Positions 5,866 to 64,000 of a stretch of DNA of 64,000 nt are shown here, piece by piece (the first letter of the stretch is position 1; the number at the start of each line of letters is the position of its first letter). The stretch is from Promethearchaeota archaeon (lineage in GTDB: Archaea > Asgardarchaeota > Lokiarchaeia > Sigyniarchaeales > SOKP01). The notes below the pieces were generated by a model. It was not told the DNA's origin, made no database searches, and saw only the letters and a program-made list of their open reading frames with translations. A program made the translations under genes and the position numbers. Location of the stretch: NCBI GenBank assembly GCA_016840165.1, contig JAEOSU010000080.1:32001-96000 (forward strand). The letters are read 5' to 3'.

Positions 5866-6107
5866 ATTAAATAGTATAATGAATTAATTATAAAAATTAA
5901 TAATCTAGACACTAATTATGAATCATTTTACTTAAAAGCAATTAATACCTTTAATTTAAATTTTAAGCGTTTTTAAGCGAAATTATTTATTTTTAGACCT
6001 TTGGTTAGCATGTACAAAAGCAAATGGTTTTAATTCAATATTATTTTAACAAAAAATATTAGATATATTCTTTTTTTTTTGAAAATAAATCTACAAAAAA
6101 ATTTAAA

Positions 6108-50097: not shown

Positions 50098-53000
50098 TCA
50101 TCCATTCTTTGAACCCTCATGATCATCTTTTTGCGAGTAAAGCAAGTCTGGATAGATAAAGTTAAACTCTTGACTAAATAATGTATGATTTGACCATTGC
50201 TTTTTTCGTTTACTCCAGATTAAGTTGGTGAGAGGGTTATAGTTATCAAGAATCCGATTATTGCCAATAATTGATTTCAAGAAAAAATCACCATCCACTA
50301 AATCCGTTAATATTAAATATTTCTCAACTTTGAGATATTGAAACACATATTCGAAGACTTGTAAAAATTCCGCAAGCTCACATTCGGGTAAATATAATTT
50401 AACCATCAAACCCTTAACGATGGTCTTTTTCTCATCGAATCCATGAATGTAATATTCACCTTTAATATCATATAAATGGACTAAGTTAAAATATTGAAAG
50501 ATATTCTTTAAGATGGGGAGAGCTTCACTTTTAATATTGAACAAGAAAAAGTGGATTGCTTCCTTGAATGCGAGATTTTTAAAAGTGATATAGGGCCATA
50601 CAAATTTGTTTTTGATAAGGAACTTGATCTTCTCAAATATTGATTGTGAATTAAAAGTCAACTTCTTTTTCACATCAACGGATTCACCGTTATAGACTTC
50701 AGTCAACAATTTGAATGCCCTTGTATCGGGTCCAGCATATTCTAGTCCATTTGCTTTATTTAATGCTAATCGCTTTAATTCTGAGTTTTGAAAACTATAT
50801 CTAGGATTAAAAAGCATGTTTTGAACATACATTCTAAAAGTTTTAGAGTCAAAGTACCAACCATCGGAGCCTAAATTAGTATTGAACTGAACAATTTGGG
50901 AAAATGATTCAATTTTAAACAAACAATACTCACGAAGTTTATTTTGACCCCGTAGCCAGTTAAGGTAGGAAGTATTCGGGTCATTATACGGAAAAAGATA
51001 ATTAATCAATAATGAACTGGAGCTATTGATTGAGACGTTATAGTGAATTTTTTGAAAAGTATTAGTGAGCAAGAGTTTTAAATCTATCTCTGCAAAATTA
51101 AACGGGGTAATATATAAGAAATACTGGGAGAGCCCAAACTTGTGAAATAATGGTAATAATCGAATTGAATCAATATAATGATGAAAAAATCGTTCTCTTT
51201 GGGCGATTTTATACTCTTCCATATCCGAAAAATATTCTTCAAGATGATGATTGAATTGTAACAAAAGACGCAGATCCTCCATCTCAAACGAAATATCTTC
51301 TGAACGAAGGCGAGTAAGAACCGTTTCGATAAGTGTTTTCATACCCTTATTCCTCGGCCATAATTTTATGCCATTGACTGAAATCTCAGTAAACGTGGTG
51401 GTCAGCTCGCCCAACACTTTTTGAATAAAGGTATAATATTCAGAAAATAAATCACTAGTATAGAAAAATTCTTTTTTAGTAAAATCATAAAAATCTTTTC
51501 GAGTAAAAGTTTCTAAAAATCCCGTCCATGGATAGCGTTTGAAAGATATAATATTTTCCTTGAACATACTATTCAATGCTGATAAAAAAATTACTTTTTC
51601 ATCACTTATCATATTCGGAATATATAATGACAAAGAGATATATTCTTCATCCGTTGAGAGATCAACTGTTTCATAGTAATAGATTTCTGGAAAATAGCTT
51701 TTTAGTTTTAGAATCGTCTCTTTTACCTCTAGATTACTTTTTAGGATAATATCCGGGAAATAATGAGCCATCCATGGGATGACTGTATTTATTAAATATG
51801 GTTTAAGAATCTGCGGTTCTTTTTTAATAAATTCCTCGAACAAAAGATTAATTGTTTTGTAGGATATCTCGTGAAGATTTGTCCTTGTTTGAAGCTCTCG
51901 AATACGTTCCTTCTTTACACTAATAATTTTTTCTAATGCTTCGGGCTTTGCAATGAGTTGTTTAATGGTGCTAATACTGAAGATTTTTAAGTTTGAACAA
52001 CCATTTAAGAACTTATGAAAAAATTGAAGCCGTTCTACCTCTTTGTGATATTTTTCATTAGCATTTAAATAATCTAAAAACAATTTTTTGAAGTCGTATG
52101 AATCTGTATTAATATCACTGAAGACTCCGTTAGTATCAATTAGCTGCAAAACGTTTTCTTTCTCAACAAACTCTTTAAATTGAATAATATTGAACAAATT
52201 CGATTTTTTTTCAATAATTCGAAAGTAATTGAGCCATTTTTCTAATTCCTCTATGATATAGAAAAACCCAAAATTGCGATTTCTCTCTAAAAAGCCTTGA
52301 AAATCCTTACGAAGGATGGAGGAGACGCGTAAACTCTCTAAACACTCCTCCAATTCTTTAGTGATATTATTTTGGTCAATAATAAAATCATAAAAATCCG
52401 ATTTTATTATGGAGGAAAGCTCCTTACTCCGGGAAAACCCTAATCCTATATACGAGTAAAATCGAACCCGATCCAAAATCAAAAATTTTAGAAGTGTTAA
52501 TCGGGAATTCACAAATTTGTTATGGTATTTTAGTGTAAACTCAAGTTCGTAGTCTTTTGATCCATTTTTAAGGTTTGGTTTAAGTATCTGGCCCTCTTTA
52601 TATGAGTCCAAGAAATAACGTAAATTCAAATTAAAAGTATAATTTTTTGCGAGGGAACAATATTTGTGAATAATATAGCCAGATTGTTCCATTTTATCGA
52701 GCATAGAGAGTAAATCTTTAATGTAAACCCGCGGAATTACAAAATATGAAAACATTTCTACCGCAAAATTGGTAATTGATAACTTTGGCATAACGATAAA
52801 TGGCATTTTATAGATAATTTTATCAATTTGAGCTTTATCTAACTGGGGATTGAATTTCAGACAGCACGCAATTACCGCCATATCCATTGCCTTCCAATCA
52901 GAATAATAGCTGGGAGCGATTCGACCAGACTTATTGATCCAGCGAAGATTTTTTTGAAATTTTCGGTAGCTTAACTCTGTTTTAATAATCCCTTGCTCTT

Positions 53001-53730
53001 TATATTTTGTAAAATATTCATTATATCCTTCCAATGTATCAACATTTTTTGCTCGATAAAATATCTGAGTCAAGACTCGTAGCGATTCGGTAATCTCATT
53101 ATTATTTATTCGATAGGAGGGTTTTTTAAAAGCCGAATCAAGCATATCCAGTAGTAATTGGGGTACCTCATCAAGATTCAGATTTGAGTATTGCCTGATA
53201 CATTCAAAGAAGTATTGTAAAGGAGTTTTCGAATCCAATTCTTTTAATTCGAGGAATTTCTCAAAGCGAAATTTATACTTTTCCTTTGAATAGCGAATAT
53301 ATCTTTCTCGAGCATTTAAAATCCATTCTTCAAGGAAATCAAATTCCTGTAAAGCAATCTCAACCAATTGTATAATAGCATAATCAATTAAATTAGAGTC
53401 TTTTAGGGCATCTGGAACAAAAGAAAAATAAGCACCTTGAAGTAGATAGTAAGGAAAGAACTTTTGATATTCCTTAAAGAGTTTGATATGGTATATTCCC
53501 TCTTCGACATATCTCATCACCCCATAAGAGAATAATTCGCCATCTGTTTCAAGATTTTCAATTTCGTCAAGGATATGTATCCTAAATTTTTTGTTAATTA
53601 CCTCTAAATTAATATAGGCGGTTAGATGGTTTATTAGGTTAAGGAAAATTTGATAAAATTGATTCTCATCATCGATTGTTGTCGCATTTTTCAATTGATT
53701 AAAATTCGGAGGATTAACCAAGCTCATCAA
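50098..53730 (-). CDS. Large hypothetical protein, probably tandem winged-helix/Lrp-AsnC-like modules
   Basis: 1210-aa ORF with four recurring P-x(4-6)-hydrophobic strand...(Y/F)xP units. Confidence 0.6.
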   Translation of the reverse strand: MMSLVNPPNFNQLKNATTIDDENQFYQIFLNLINHLTAYINLEVINKKFRIHILDEIENLETDGELFSYGVMRYVEEGIYHIKLFKEYQKFFPYYLLQGAYFSFVPDALKDSNLIDYAIIQLVEIALQEFDFLEEWILNARERYIRYSKEKYKFRFEKFLELKELDSKTPLQYFFECIRQYSNLNLDEVPQLLLDMLDSAFKKPSYRINNNEITESLRVLTQIFYRAKNVDTLEGYNEYFTKYKEQGIIKTELSYRKFQKNLRWINKSGRIAPSYYSDWKAMDMAVIACCLKFNPQLDKAQIDKIIYKMPFIVMPKLSITNFAVEMFSYFVIPRVYIKDLLSMLDKMEQSGYIIHKYCSLAKNYTFNLNLRYFLDSYKEGQILKPNLKNGSKDYELEFTLKYHNKFVNSRLTLLKFLILDRVRFYSYIGLGFSRSKELSSIIKSDFYDFIIDQNNITKELEECLESLRVSSILRKDFQGFLERNRNFGFFYIIEELEKWLNYFRIIEKKSNLFNIIQFKEFVEKENVLQLIDTNGVFSDINTDSYDFKKLFLDYLNANEKYHKEVERLQFFHKFLNGCSNLKIFSISTIKQLIAKPEALEKIISVKKERIRELQTRTNLHEISYKTINLLFEEFIKKEPQILKPYLINTVIPWMAHYFPDIILKSNLEVKETILKLKSYFPEIYYYETVDLSTDEEYISLSLYIPNMISDEKVIFLSALNSMFKENIISFKRYPWTGFLETFTRKDFYDFTKKEFFYTSDLFSEYYTFIQKVLGELTTTFTEISVNGIKLWPRNKGMKTLIETVLTRLRSEDISFEMEDLRLLLQFNHHLEEYFSDMEEYKIAQRERFFHHYIDSIRLLPLFHKFGLSQYFLYITPFNFAEIDLKLLLTNTFQKIHYNVSINSSSSLLINYLFPYNDPNTSYLNWLRGQNKLREYCLFKIESFSQIVQFNTNLGSDGWYFDSKTFRMYVQNMLFNPRYSFQNSELKRLALNKANGLEYAGPDTRAFKLLTEVYNGESVDVKKKLTFNSQSIFEKIKFLIKNKFVWPYITFKNLAFKEAIHFFLFNIKSEALPILKNIFQYFNLVHLYDIKGEYYIHGFDEKKTIVKGLMVKLYLPECELAEFLQVFEYVFQYLKVEKYLILTDLVDGDFFLKSIIGNNRILDNYNPLTNLIWSKRKKQWSNHTLFSQEFNFIYPDLLYSQKDDHEGSKNG

Positions 53731-59893: not shown

Positions 59894-62689
59894 CTATTTA
59901 ATAATGATTGCAGGTCTTCCAGGTAAGGCTTGGAGTGCTTTTTTATTTTTTGATTGATCTTCCTTGATAATATTAATATCACATTGATATTTATTTTTCA
60001 AAATAGATTGAATTTTAGTGAAAAAAGAATACTCCTCTTGCATATTTATCGGCGGAACGCTATATTTCCCGAGATTTTTTAGGACCTTTATGACAGTCTG
60101 AGAAATAAACTTCCCTTTTTCTCGATTCTCTTCTTTAAACATTAATTCCTTTATAATTTCTTTCTGATCCTTAGTTTTATCTGCTAAAGACAGCAACTGT
60201 GATAGAAAGTTATATTTCCATTGATCCGCTATAATCAGATTAATTTCGTCTGGTTGTTCTAATTTAATTATTACAAGGATATGATTAATCGAATCTATAG
60301 TATTATTGAGTAGATTCCATTTATAGTCATTTTCGACTGTAAGATATTTATCATCAAAACCTGGCCATTTTGAGATACTAAGGAATGTATTTTTATTGAG
60401 ATTTTCCCAGATTTCTTCTGTTACATGCGGAATAAAGGGATGGAGTAATATCGTAAATTTTTCTCGACATTCATCAAATACTTCTTGGGATATACCCTCA
60501 TTTTTATATTTTGAAAATTCAGAAGAAAATTGAATCAACTGGTTGATTGCGTCTCGAATATCTATAGATTCTAAGCTTTCAGAAACGTGTTTAATAGTTT
60601 TATGTAAATAATATAAAATTAGGGTATCCCTTATTGTTTCCTTCTTATTGAGATTCTGAGGTTCGTCGCTAAGCATTGAAAAAACATTTCTCACATATTT
60701 GAACGCAAAATCCACCCCTTCATCTGACCATTCCAATCCTGACTTAGGACTTGCTCCAAATAGTATAAAGAATCTCGCCGCATCGGCACCATATTTTTCC
60801 ATTAATCCAATGGGATCAACAGTATTCCCCAAGCTTTTGCTCATTTTAACACTTTTAAGGATGTATTTTGTACCACAGCGTTTACACATCTTATCATCTA
60901 TTTCGTTTTTCATCGCAAACGTTTCGCATTTGGGGCAATAGGGATGATTTTTGTTGATCATACCCTGAGTTAATAACCGTTGGAATGGTTCATCAATCGA
61001 ATGGAGCCCTAAATCCCGTGCTACTTTTGTGAAAAATCGGGCATATAATAGGTGAAGTATAGCATGTTCAATTCCTCCTATGTATTGATCTACATTCATC
61101 CAGTAATTCGCAACTTTTTTCTTATAGGGTAAATATATTTCATGCGGATCACAAAATCTTAGAAAATACCAAGAACTATCAACAAATGTATCCATAGTAT
61201 CGGTCTCACGTTCAGCGGGCTTTCCACATTTAGGACATATAGTTTTAAGGAATGATTCACTAGTCTTTATTGGATTTCCCTTTCCAGTAAACTTTACATC
61301 TTCAGGTAATTTAACTGGTAGGTCCTCATAAGATACGGGAACAATCCCACATCCTTTACAATAGATTATAGGGATAGGACATCCCCAATATCGTTGCCTA
61401 GAAATAAGCCAATCTCTTAATTTGTAATTTATCGTGAATGAGCCTTTATTGATTTTAGTAAGCTTTTCCGTGATTGCTTTAACTGCAGAACGGTTTTCCA
61501 TTCCATTAAATTCCCCGGAGTTGACCAAAATTCCATCTCCCTCGTATGCTCTAGTCATCTTATTTGGATTTAATGCATAATCAAAAGGTTGGATCACAAT
61601 CTTTATAGGGATATCATATTTTTTTGCGAATTCAAAATCTCTTTGATCGTGTCCGGGAACTGCCATAACCGCACCTGCACCATACTCATATATTACAAAA
61701 TTGCCAACATAGACTGGTACTTTTTCACTTGTCATAGGATTAATGGCATATTTACCGATGAATATACCCTTTTTTTCAATCTCTATATCAGTACGGGAAA
61801 ATTTATCTTGTTTTATAACCTCATTGTAAAAAATATTAAAATTTGGTTCGATTTTTGTTCCCTTAACCCATTTTTTAATCCAAGGGTGTTCCGGTGCGAA
61901 AACCATGAAAGTGACTCCAAACAGAGTATCCGGCCTAGTAGTGAAAATATCTATGGTTCTTTCTCCCCCTTCAATCGGAAATTGGATGATGGTTCCCTCT
62001 GAACGTCCAATCCAGTTTCTCTGCATTATCTTTACTTTCTCGGGCCAATCAACTTTATCTAACCCTTCCAGTAATTCCTCTGCATAAGTCCTTATCTTAA
62101 GAAACCACTGAGTAAGAAATTTTTGATTTACTTCCGCACCACAGCGCCAACATTTCCCAGTTAGGACCTGTTCATTCGCTAATACTGTTTGACATTTTGG
62201 ACACCAATTCACATAGCTTTCTTGTCTATATGCTAAACCCTTTTCAAACATTTTAAGAAAAAACCATTGATCCCAACGGTAATAACTTGGATCATGGCTA
62301 AAGATTTTTCGAGTCCAATCATATGAGAGACCGATTCGTTCTTGTTGTGTTTTCATCAACTCAATATTTGCATCGGTATATGATTCAGGATTCGCACCTT
62401 CATCTATAGCTGCATTTTCTGCTGGTAAACCGAATGAGTCGTAACCCATTGGATAAAGAACATTAAAATCATTCATTCTTTTATACCTAGCGTATGCGTC
62501 TCCAATAGAGTAATTTCTTAAATGTCCCATATGCAAACCGCTGCCAGATGGGTACGGATACATTTCTAATACATAAAACTTTTTCTTTTGCTCCTCTGGT
62601 AATTCAGTAACCTCGAAAATTTTTTCTTTTTTCCATCTGCTTTGCCATTTTTTCTCAATTGCTTTAAAATTATATTCTCGATTTGCCAT
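59894..62689 (-). CDS. leuS: Leucine--tRNA ligase
   Basis: MYPYPSG..LHMGH, FTTRPDT (CP1), [17 protein letters not shown] and KMSKS motifs. Confidence 0.97.
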
Positions 62690-62906
62690 TCTAATCCTAA
62701 TACTTTCTTAAAATATACCAATTATAAATATTACCTTGAATAATTGATTGATTAAATTTTTTTGGAAAAAAACTCCTTCTAACGAAAACGTGAGGTATTT
62801 TAAAAAATAAAAATCTAAAAATTAGGAGTTTAAATATATATTTCTTTAAGGATACTTGTATCTGTAAAGATGCATGATATCAATTTCTAGTAAAGGGGTT
62901 ATTAAA

Positions 62907-63017
62907 GTGAAATTGAAAATTTACCAAGTACTTATGTTTGCTTTAATCGGCTTTATCTCCAGTTTACCTCTCATGAGCATGGCTTTATGCGGTCAGGGGG
63001 GTACTGGAGGACCATAA
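62907..63017 (+). CDS. Unannotated 36-aa small protein, signal-peptide-like: MKLKIYQVLMFALIGFISSLPLMSMALCGQGGTGGP
   Basis: GTG start 8 nt after the GGGG core of an AAAGGGGTT purine tract; n/h/c signal-peptide pattern; locally GC-richer than the flanks; hairpin and T-tract follow. Confidence 0.55.
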   Translation: MKLKIYQVLMFALIGFISSLPLMSMALCGQGGTGGP

Positions 63018-63068
63018 AGAACCAATTTTTATGGTATGGCGACTAGCAAACAGTATTTCCTTTTTTTT
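63011..63068 (+). terminator. Hairpin over the sORF stop codon followed by a T8 tract
   Basis: ACCATAAAGA pairs with TTTTTATGGT (one G-U, loop ACCAA); T8 at 63061..63068. Confidence 0.4.
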
Positions 63069-63160: not shown

Positions 63161-64000
63161 ATGGGAGTAGAGAAGATACGAGTATCAATCGGGAGTGCTT
63201 CTGTGCTTGGTTTATATGGAGGCGCCCGTTTTAAAGATCCTCCAACAACATGTTATCTTATGACGTATTCCGCTGGAAATGATCCTGTTGGTAGACGTTG
63301 CTTAGGAAATTGTGGCTTTTGCCCTCAAGCACGTGATGCAGAAAGTTCACTTGAATTGTTATCCAGAGTTACATGGCCAGTATATCATTTAAAGGAAGTT
63401 TTCACGAAATTAAAGTATTTATCTCCAAATAAGCAGTTCAAACGAATATGCGTTCAAACTTTAAACTACACTCAAAATTTTGAAGATTTAAAATACATCA
63501 TTACTCAAATTAGGAGAAACAACAATACTCCTATATCTATCGCCATCCCTCCTTTTACTGAAGAAAAATTGAAGGAATTAAAACGAATAGGAGTGGAAAG
63601 AGTGGGTATCGCATTAGATGCATCAACACAGGAAATTTTCGATAAGATTAAAGGAAAGGGAGTAGATGGTCCATATCGTTGGGAGCACCACTTTAAGACT
63701 TTGGAAAATGCATTAAATATTTTTTCCGAAGGAAAGGTGTCTACCCATTTGATTATAGGATTAGGGGAAACTTCTAAGGATGTGGCAGAATTGATTATGC
63801 GGTTAAGTAATATGAAAATAACGGTTGGATTATTTTCCTTTACCCCAATTAAGGGAACGAGTTTAGAAAAATTAAGCCCTCCAGATCTTTTGCGATTCAG
63901 AAAAATTCAACTTGCACTTTACCTTATTGCTAAAAAGAATCGAACTTTAAACGAGATTACGTTTAATACAAGGGGAGATATTATTAAATTTAATTTGAAT
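63161..64000 (+). CDS. Radical SAM enzyme, biotin-synthase-related COG2516 type (LipS2-like); runs off the window edge
   Basis: Not in the ORF track. Manual translation: MGVEKIRVSIGSASVLGL...PPTTCYLMTY...CLGNCGFCPQAR...LLSRVTWP, with a CxxxCxxC motif. Confidence 0.85.
   Translation, partial: MGVEKIRVSIGSASVLGLYGGARFKDPPTTCYLMTYSAGNDPVGRRCLGNCGFCPQARDAESSLELLSRVTWPVYHLKEVFTKLKYLSPNKQFKRICVQTLNYTQNFEDLKYIITQIRRNNNTPISIAIPPFTEEKLKELKRIGVERVGIALDASTQEIFDKIKGKGVDGPYRWEHHFKTLENALNIFSEGKVSTHLIIGLGETSKDVAELIMRLSNMKITVGLFSFTPIKGTSLEKLSPPDLLRFRKIQLALYLIAKKNRTLNEITFNTRGDIIKFNLN

Follow-up and report, generated by a model that had tools for sequence, protein, structure and literature searches.

Small genes for signal-peptide-like peptides and their linkage to a giant Lrp/AsnC-like protein in one family of Promethearchaeota

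Near the end of a stretch of 64,000 nucleotides (nt) from a Promethearchaeota archaeon (contig JAEOSU010000080.1 of assembly GCA_016840165.1, positions 32,001 to 96,000 of the forward strand), a small open reading frame (sORF) lies between a leucyl-tRNA synthetase gene and a radical SAM gene. The locus raises the question whether this frame is a gene and, if so, which of the genes around it is its partner. The whole stretch is called the window and is designated G000:C63:32001-96000, where G000 is the genome studied here, with an assembly of 3.6 Mb and G+C content of 31.6%. The sORF is located at 62907-63017 on the plus strand and has 36 codons and a stop codon. It is a real gene, and it is unrelated to the adjacent radical SAM gene, because the usual neighbour of its family is a giant Lrp/AsnC-like protein, designated here as X, and the radical SAM gene codes for an ordinary lipoic-acid synthase. 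The sORF is tentatively regarded as the gene of an exported pre-peptide coupled to the regulator X. This reading, in which export, cleavage, and function are all putative, falls a little short of probable.

The small gene and its family

The product of the sORF is (V/M)KLKIYQVLMFALIGFISSLPLMSMALCGQGGTGGP, read from a GTG at 62907 to a stop codon at 63015-63017. Its length alone is no evidence of a gene, because a frame of at least 36 amino acids (aa) was found in 64% of 3000 shuffles of the 471-bp intergenic region, and one of at least 47 aa in 28%. The sORF is lifted above chance, as a real gene, by its conservation across copies and genomes, and the frame is kept as coding across the family. 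The length of 47 aa is that obtained from an alternative in-frame ATG at 62874. In a second copy on contig C2 of the same genome, a GTG replaces this ATG, and further upstream there is a TAA stop in the window copy where the C2 copy is open; the stretch 5' of the sORF GTG is thus read as not conserved as coding.

From its layout, the sORF is interpreted as an independently transcribed small protein gene with a TATA box, a leader of about 45 nt, a Shine-Dalgarno sequence, the GTG, 36 codons, and a run of eight T. The TATA box TTTAAATA is located at 62829-62836 on the plus strand, where a duplicated unit of 243 bp starts. A near-palindrome, GATACTTGTATC, lies at the expected transcription start (62851-62862, unstranded) and is a candidate operator. 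The Shine-Dalgarno-like sequence AAAGGGGT (62892-62899, plus strand) has the purine-rich AAAGGGG at 62892-62898, 8 nt before the GTG. A local 10-bp hairpin covers the stop codon (63011-63035, plus strand, with arms 63011-63020 and 63026-63035), and the T8 run at 63061-63068 on the same strand, likely an archaeal terminator, is the end of the duplicated unit. Most of these elements had been pointed out in a sequence-only reading of the locus, and the 36-aa frame with GTG start, the Shine-Dalgarno-like tract, the hairpin, the T8 run, and the gap of 143 nt between the sORF stop and the ATG of the radical SAM gene (63161) are all present, as are the basic n-region and hydrophobic h-region that it described in the product.

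The second copy (G000:C2:50007-50114) is 93% nt identical to the window copy over 243 bp. The similarity runs exactly from the TTTAAATA box to the T-run, and the flanks are unrelated, with an enoyl-CoA hydratase gene upstream and a TrkA_N protein gene downstream of the C2 copy. Within the frame there are five differences, three of them synonymous and two conservative, and 76 nt of the 5' leader contain another eight. In the C2 copy, the perfect palindrome GATACATGTATC (L012, about 5950-5961) replaces GATACTTGTATC; the element stands directly after the TATA box in both G000 copies. These two copies have GATAC(T/A)TGTATC at the expected start site and the promoter-region motif GATACWTGTATC. In the X-adjacent copies of other genomes, a palindrome AGAAAATTCTTTCT abuts the TATA box just upstream of it. 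At the Shine-Dalgarno position, GGTG was found in the C2 copy, and AAGGT or GGTG at the same distance in other members. A box TTTAAATA or TTTATATA is present at the equivalent upstream distance in all family members.

Profile searches of whole genomes recognized 36 copies of the sORF. All are in one Promethearchaeota (Asgard) family, where 20 of 135 genomes carry them; the 265 genomes searched from the rest of the phylum gave no copy. The first profile round gave 15 intact copies from three genera, and a second subfamily was added later. The coding tests were made on the 15 members of subfamily A, to which the sORF belongs. Only the sORF frame, among the six, is open in all of them, and all insertions and deletions are multiples of three. 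The start aligns at a single position, where GTG, TTG, or ATG stands, and AAGGT or GGTG precedes it by 7-10 nt. Pairwise differences at codon positions 1, 2, and 3 are 0.25, 0.17, and 0.37, respectively, and the pooled pN/pS is 0.48. A canonical TATA box about 50-75 nt upstream and at least six T in a row downstream accompany each copy. Metagenome proteins P0002, P0003, and P0005-P0007, predicted by gene callers as hypothetical proteins, are also members of the family. The check proposed in the sequence-only reading, a search for conserved or paralogous small frames in Asgard genomes, was positive on both counts, with the reading frame conserved in relatives.

By these comparisons, the peptides form a previously unnamed family of 34-40 aa, so far found only in one Promethearchaeota family. 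No match of the peptide was recognized in Pfam, NCBIfam, PHROGs, or Atlas, a search for fused or longer relatives found none, and neither an Rfam family nor a tRNA was identified in the region around the sORF. Two members are unusual. The member L119 (G111:C114, 7068-7169, minus strand) has lost the stop, and its frame continues to about 80 aa as MKLQSKISMILALLTAISVFLGFATSGVADAVGGAEALKTF... The member on G115:C320 (L030, 1474-1581) is degenerate, with the tail and the 3' untranslated region (UTR) kept and the N-terminal half and the promoter replaced, and it is probably a pseudogene.

The architecture of the peptides is signal-peptide-like. Compared were 35 family peptides, in which subfamily A and subfamily B, the latter discovered beside other copies of gene X, align without gaps. 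The N-terminus of all 35 is M-K-[L/I]-x-x-[K/R], with K/R at position 2 and between positions 4 and 8, and a hydrophobic core of about 13-21 residues is common to all members; in the sORF product, the hydrophobic stretch peaks at 2.05 in a Kyte-Doolittle window of 19 residues. A triplet follows, located by a rule that sought small residues 6-10 positions from the C-terminus, with V, G, or A at -3 (35/35), L at -2 (30/35), and G, A, or C at -1 (35/35). The remaining tail is Gly-rich and is 8 residues long in 25 of the 35 peptides, 9 in eight, 6 in one, and 10 in one. It ends with G-[G/T/N/I]-P in nearly all. Both features of Sec-type signal peptides, a positive n-region with an h-region and small uncharged residues at -3 and -1, were thus found in the family. 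Subfamily B has textbook signal-peptidase sites (...SSALA|EFPGHAGGP and ...TSVLA|QGAGGGGNP), and its hydrophobic run is broken by K, Q, or R, so that the h-region is about 12-13 residues, the length of that in signal peptides.

In the sORF product, the signal-peptide-like part MKLKIYQVLMFALIGFISSLPLMSMALC is encoded at 62907-62990 on the plus strand and consists of a basic n-region, a hydrophobic core, and A-L-C at -3 to -1 of the putative cleavage site. The C-terminal tail GQGGTGGP (62991-63014, plus strand) is a putative released peptide of 8 aa, according to the conservation of tail length. A cut after S-M-A, giving the 10-mer LCGQGGTGGP, had been proposed from the single sequence; in register with subfamily B, the cut would more probably be after A-L-C and give the 8-mer. 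The first two tail positions are the most variable in the family, and G3, G5-7, and P8 are nearly fixed. A tandem array on G144:C1 has the different tails VNAGEGGP, VNGNGGGP, and FSGGEGTP. The Cys of the sORF product is present in the four closest sequences only, with Gly or Ala in the other 31 of 35. Complex prediction with four copies of the peptide scored 0.02 against a mark of 0.42, a result to which no weight is given either way.

The giant protein X beside the peptide genes

When the flanks of the family members were compared, the recurrent neighbour of the sORF was gene X, which codes for about 1,210 aa, is usually divergent, and starts 210-670 bp away. One to three tandem peptide genes, usually divergent, are found per X. 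The arrangement was tallied at 26 loci outside G000, of which 24 could be resolved. X is adjacent in 20 of the 24 resolvable loci, being divergent in 16, co-directional in three, and present as a 60-codon N-terminal remnant in one, and the other four loci have no X within 1.5-8 kb. The locus with the remnant, G144:C15, is otherwise syntenic with the window in the order LeuS, sORF, and LipS2 (the radical SAM protein). X itself is coded in the window at 50098-53730 on the minus strand, as a protein of 1210 aa, 9 kb from the sORF. Both G000 copies of the sORF appear from this comparison to have lost their adjacency to the X gene.

X-family genes occur in 118 of the 135 genomes of the taxonomic family, often in several copies. 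The X proteins beside subfamily-A sORFs are a distinct subfamily, 53-55% identical to X of G000, and other copies of X are about 35% identical to it, even those from the same genus. Paralogous X-sORF pairs occur within single genomes. X of G016 (genus g1) and X of G108 (genus g22) are 84% identical over the first about 430 residues, which is above the cross-genus identity of the housekeeping proteins LeuS (74%) and LipS2 (61%) in G000 and G144. Inter-genus transfer of the module is therefore suggested.

Two further observations concern X. On L084 (JGI contig Ga0452215_000918, 168-10993), the genes around the X-sORF module are GmrSD_N, PemK toxin, HTH, and FtsK/DUF87, surroundings that look, by gene content, like a defence or mobile-element neighbourhood. 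Also, about one in five genomic matches of the X family has at least one in-frame stop codon (e.g., G133:C31, G146:C245, and G116:C28), and frequent pseudogenes, assembly errors, or another cause may lie behind these.

No match of X was found in Pfam (E ≤ 0.01), PADLOC, PHROGs, or PDB sequences, and X has no transmembrane segment. Colinear homologues of about 1,200 aa form 247 representative clusters. The AlphaFold2 (AF2) model of X, computed with 57 homologues, has a mean predicted local distance difference test (pLDDT) of 86 and a predicted template modelling (TM) score (pTM) of 0.85. Four repeats are seen in the model, each with a helical unit followed by beta-alpha-beta-beta-alpha-beta. 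The repeats are visible only in the predicted structure, and internal-repeat signals were weak in the hhalign self-comparison of X (E about 0.006). The module at residues 205-405, folded alone, reached a pLDDT of 88, and Foldseek matched it to full-length Lrp/AsnC regulators with a probability of 1.0, E of 1.6e-5 to 1e-3, and TM(target) of 0.45-0.57 over about 150 columns. Among these regulators are PH1519/FL11, ST1022, E. coli Lrp and AsnC, LrpC, and NMB0573. With the whole model of X, the only significant Foldseek match was NirDL, a two-module protein of the Lrp/AsnC fold from the siroheme decarboxylase NirDL/AhbAB. Matches to AcrB-type proteins were obtained with a TM-score of about 0.07 and are regarded as spurious. 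As modelled, X is a soluble chain of about 1,200 aa with approximately four Lrp/AsnC-like modules, each of a winged helix-turn-helix (wHTH) and a RAM domain. The relationship to Lrp/AsnC is at the fold level only, with no membership by sequence (HTH_AsnC-type and AsnC_trans_reg are below threshold). On the strength of the predicted fold, X may bind DNA.

The transcript and the neighbouring genes

The transcript region of 211 nt folds at -59 kcal/mol with z = -3.6. Among nine close members, the 5' leader has 0.14 differences per site, codon position 2 has 0.12, and the flanks have 0.4-0.55. A long-range helix between codons about 7-16 and the 3' UTR can be formed in nearly all members, with -10 to -19 kcal/mol. 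In the window, the arm in the coding sequence (codons 8-12) is located at 62928-62942, and the complementary arm in the 3' UTR at 63043-63056, both on the plus strand and both found in the complementarity test. In the alignment, 85% of cells are paired in this helix, compared with 38-51% when the partners are slid. Covariation is slight: double changes were seen in five pairs only, and the observed score was matched or exceeded in 14 of 500 shuffles. RNAalifold on the whole transcript gave a weak consensus of -4 kcal/mol and did not recover the long-range helix, which is seen only in the explicit test. The hairpin at the stop codon is present in both G000 copies and is not conserved in other genera. 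The mRNA of the sORF is probably structured, which is compatible with coding, and the long-range helix probably affects mRNA stability or translation. No conserved reverse-strand TATA box or antisense unit was recognized in the family alignments, which were inspected for it by eye only.

The divergent neighbour of the sORF, at 59894-62689 on the minus strand, is leucyl-tRNA synthetase (LeuS), as assigned from its sequence, and a homologous neighbour occurs across genomes. LeuS fragments were found next to the module elsewhere. On L077 (G093:C11, 8531-9813), a C-terminal LeuS fragment of about 430 aa follows the sORF and a full LeuS precedes X, and on L072 (G102:C19, 7461-8000), an N-terminal LeuS fragment of 179 aa lies between lipS2 and the sORF. 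Such fragments flanking X-sORF modules suggest repeated rearrangement or insertion at the leuS-lipS2 junction.

The radical SAM gene on the other side (63161-64000 on the plus strand, continuing to the window-equivalent 64180) codes for the lipoyl synthase LipS2. Its product scores 335 bits with the NCBIfam LipS2 equivalog NF053743, the cutoff of which is 270, and has the motif CLGNCGFC (CX3CX2C). Radical_SAM is its only Pfam match, and neither a peptide-maturase SPASM/twitch domain nor an RRE domain was found. The genes for LipS2, a ligase of the LplA/LipB fold, LipS1, a CofE/FbiB-like protein, and CofD follow each other on one strand (L001, 5161-10412). LipS1, two genes downstream of LipS2, scores 263 bits with a cutoff of 230. 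LipS1 and LipS2 together are the archaeal lipoyl synthase. By gene content, LipS2-LplA-LipS1 is a housekeeping lipoylation operon that is not part of the sORF system. The lipoylation genes are directly followed by the F420 biosynthesis genes on the one strand. No sORF was found upstream of LipS2 at any of 15 LipS2 loci from other Promethearchaeota and Bathyarchaeia metagenome-assembled genomes, and only three of about 28 sORF loci are near lipS2; most copies are not beside any radical SAM gene.

Possible roles of the peptide and of X

What can be proposed beyond the gene, its architecture, and its linkage to X is as follows. The sORF peptide would be inserted or exported via the Sec system, and signal peptidase I would cut after A-L-C ([V/A/G]-L-[G/A/C] in the family), so that the octapeptide GQGGTGGP would be released outside the cell. 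X would control the divergent sORF promoter. This control is proposed because regulators of this kind commonly control their divergent neighbour; specific Lrp/AsnC regulators are often divergent from the target gene, as in AsnC-asnA and PutR-putA. X and the peptide would form a cassette of a regulator and an exported peptide, and paralogous cassettes would differ mainly in the first two tail residues. The secreted short peptide was also among the suggestions of the sequence-only reading, and the family data favour it over the other three; its proposed 7TM partner gives way to the Lrp/AsnC-like giant, and its 10-mer to the 8-mer as the likelier product. An extension of this proposal, and a quite unlikely one, is an autoinducer circuit in Asgard archaea, where exported octapeptides of the type x-x-G-x-G-G-G-P would be sensed, after re-import or via a derivative, by the single-chain X that controls the pre-peptide promoter. 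Cassettes with different first tail residues would then be "pherotypes", and the system an analogue of RRNPP built from unrelated parts.

Several points weigh against the coupled exported peptide. Both G000 copies of the sORF and four loci elsewhere have no adjacent X, and such an sORF is absent from 16 of the 18 loci that were sampled from the X family in general. X reaches no Pfam threshold, and it may not be a DNA-binding protein, because an enzyme, siroheme decarboxylase, has the Lrp/AsnC fold too. The score of 35/35 at the cleavage-like triplet is partly built into the rule by which it was located. In subfamily A, the hydrophobic stretch is about 21 residues long and of transmembrane grade, and the peptide may therefore stay in the membrane uncleaved. 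The N-terminal part is also more conserved than is usual for signal peptides, and the constraint of the long-range RNA helix may account for some of this conservation.

The layout resembles that of the RRNPP(A) systems of Bacillota (Rgg/SHP, PlcR/PapR, Rap/Phr, and NprR/NprX). By general background and two sources (PMC9765709 and PMC11343458), the gene of a cytoplasmic regulator lies there beside, and often divergent from, one or more tiny pro-peptide genes with an export signal, the short mature signal comes from the C-terminus of the pro-peptide, paralogous pairs occur within genomes, and the distribution is patchy. In the same sources, tandem pro-peptide genes or duplications are known from RRNPP cassettes. 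A small pro-peptide gene adjoining the gene of a putative receptor was found here at 20 of the 24 resolvable loci. The likeness is an analogy of layout and not a membership, because the receptor fold differs: X has Lrp/AsnC-like wHTH and RAM modules instead of a TPR/HTH receptor (the Pfam scan of X gave no TPR match), and the host is an Asgard archaeon. With Lrp/AsnC regulators, X shares the fold, one module superposing on full-length proteins of that family, and the position divergent from a small target gene, which is typical of specific members. It differs from them in having about four modules in one chain of about 1,200 aa, where the usual subunit has 150 aa and oligomerises, and in its putative target, a 36-aa peptide gene and not an operon of amino-acid metabolism.

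If the peptide is not cleaved, it could be a single-pass membrane micro-protein, with the N-terminus inside and the Gly-rich tail outside, that modulates or anchors a membrane protein and is regulated by X according to nutrient status. Small proteins with such a membrane role are common in bacteria, such as KdpF, AcrZ, and MgtS. The hydrophobic segment of about 21 residues with its Kyte-Doolittle peak, the highly conserved N-terminal part, and the position of the C2 copy 190 bp upstream of the TrkA_N-domain channel-like gene, a context kept on metagenome contigs, are consistent with it. A plain anchor, however, needs neither a fixed tail of 8-10 residues nor a small-x-small triplet at a set distance from the C-terminus, the h-region of subfamily B is of signal-peptide length, and no membrane-protein neighbour is conserved across the loci, so this role is considered somewhat unlikely. 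A module similar to type I toxins (Hok, Ldr, TisB, Fst, and AapA1) was also considered, with a membrane-damaging hydrophobic peptide, the translation of which is curbed by the structured mRNA and possibly by an antisense RNA. Like those toxins, the peptide is small and hydrophobic, and the family is multi-copy, sometimes tandem, patchy, and apparently moved between genera; the folding z-score, a 5' UTR as conserved as codon position 2, and the intramolecular helix between coding sequence and 3' UTR in nearly all members point in the same direction, and one locus is beside PemK and GmrSD genes. It is nevertheless distinctly unlikely to be such a toxin. The conserved partner is a protein and not an RNA, an antisense RNA gene was not recognized in the inspection by eye, covariation in the helix is weak, and the invariant Gly-rich tail and the cleavage-like motif would be left unexplained. 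One review (PMC12390103) has type I systems from only a few bacterial phyla so far, and none described in archaea.

Three further readings were weighed. One is a ribosomally synthesized and post-translationally modified peptide (RiPP), with a conserved N-terminal leader and a variable Gly-rich core. As in loci of sactipeptides and ranthipeptides, a small Cys/Gly frame and a radical SAM gene share one strand, the frame being immediately upstream. Here, however, the enzyme is a true LipS2 that acts with LipS1 and LplA, and neither the Cys nor the linkage is conserved, so that a RiPP precursor for this enzyme is ruled out by the identity of the operon and by the 15 LipS2 loci without the sORF. 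In a wider form, with X as an unrecognized maturation enzyme, the RiPP could draw on a leader more conserved than the core, on tandem precursors with different cores adjoining one large conserved protein, and on the enzymatic member of the Lrp/AsnC fold. Even so, it is very improbable, as many tails have no Cys, Ser, or Thr (e.g., WKGDGGGP) and modifiable core residues are not conserved, no conserved protease, transporter, RRE, YcaO, LanM, or SPASM gene was found at the loci, and the strongly hydrophobic leader is atypical. If the open frame were incidental, the unit could be a structured non-coding RNA or a lipS2 leader/attenuator, which would fit the fold of the transcript, the conserved UTRs, and the frequency of frames of such length by chance. 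The frame, the class of start codon, the stop position, and the in-frame indels are conserved in all members, however, and there is no Rfam match. Against a leader or attenuator, which is rejected, stand the self-contained nature of the unit, which has a TATA box and a T-run of its own, and its recurrence in tandem arrays and in many unrelated contexts without lipS2; this whole reading is hardly credible. A Cys-lipidated micro-lipoprotein was suggested by the Cys after the hydrophobic region in this genome. The lipobox has the consensus [LVI][ASTVI][GAS]C with invariant Cys at +1, and M-A-L-C, with Leu at -1, is no lipobox. With the Cys kept in only 4 of 35 peptides, the lipoprotein is rejected and can be considered effectively refuted.

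Genes too small to pass annotation cut-offs have hardly been explored in Asgard archaea. The sORF family adds well-supported conserved micro-genes with clear expression signals, and a conserved and likewise unnamed partner that is present in most genomes of the family. More than an isolated sORF, the finding is a module of two genes that is confined to a single Asgard family, and it also clears the lipoylation operon of a mistaken RiPP lead. Under the conservative reading, a regulated membrane micro-protein, an unusual giant regulator would still gain a concrete target gene in the sORF. Should the peptides be exported and X respond to them, the module would be, for archaea near the ancestor of eukaryotes, the first cassette of a peptide-signalling type to be proposed, and would mean that such circuits can be built on the scaffold of a feast/famine regulator.

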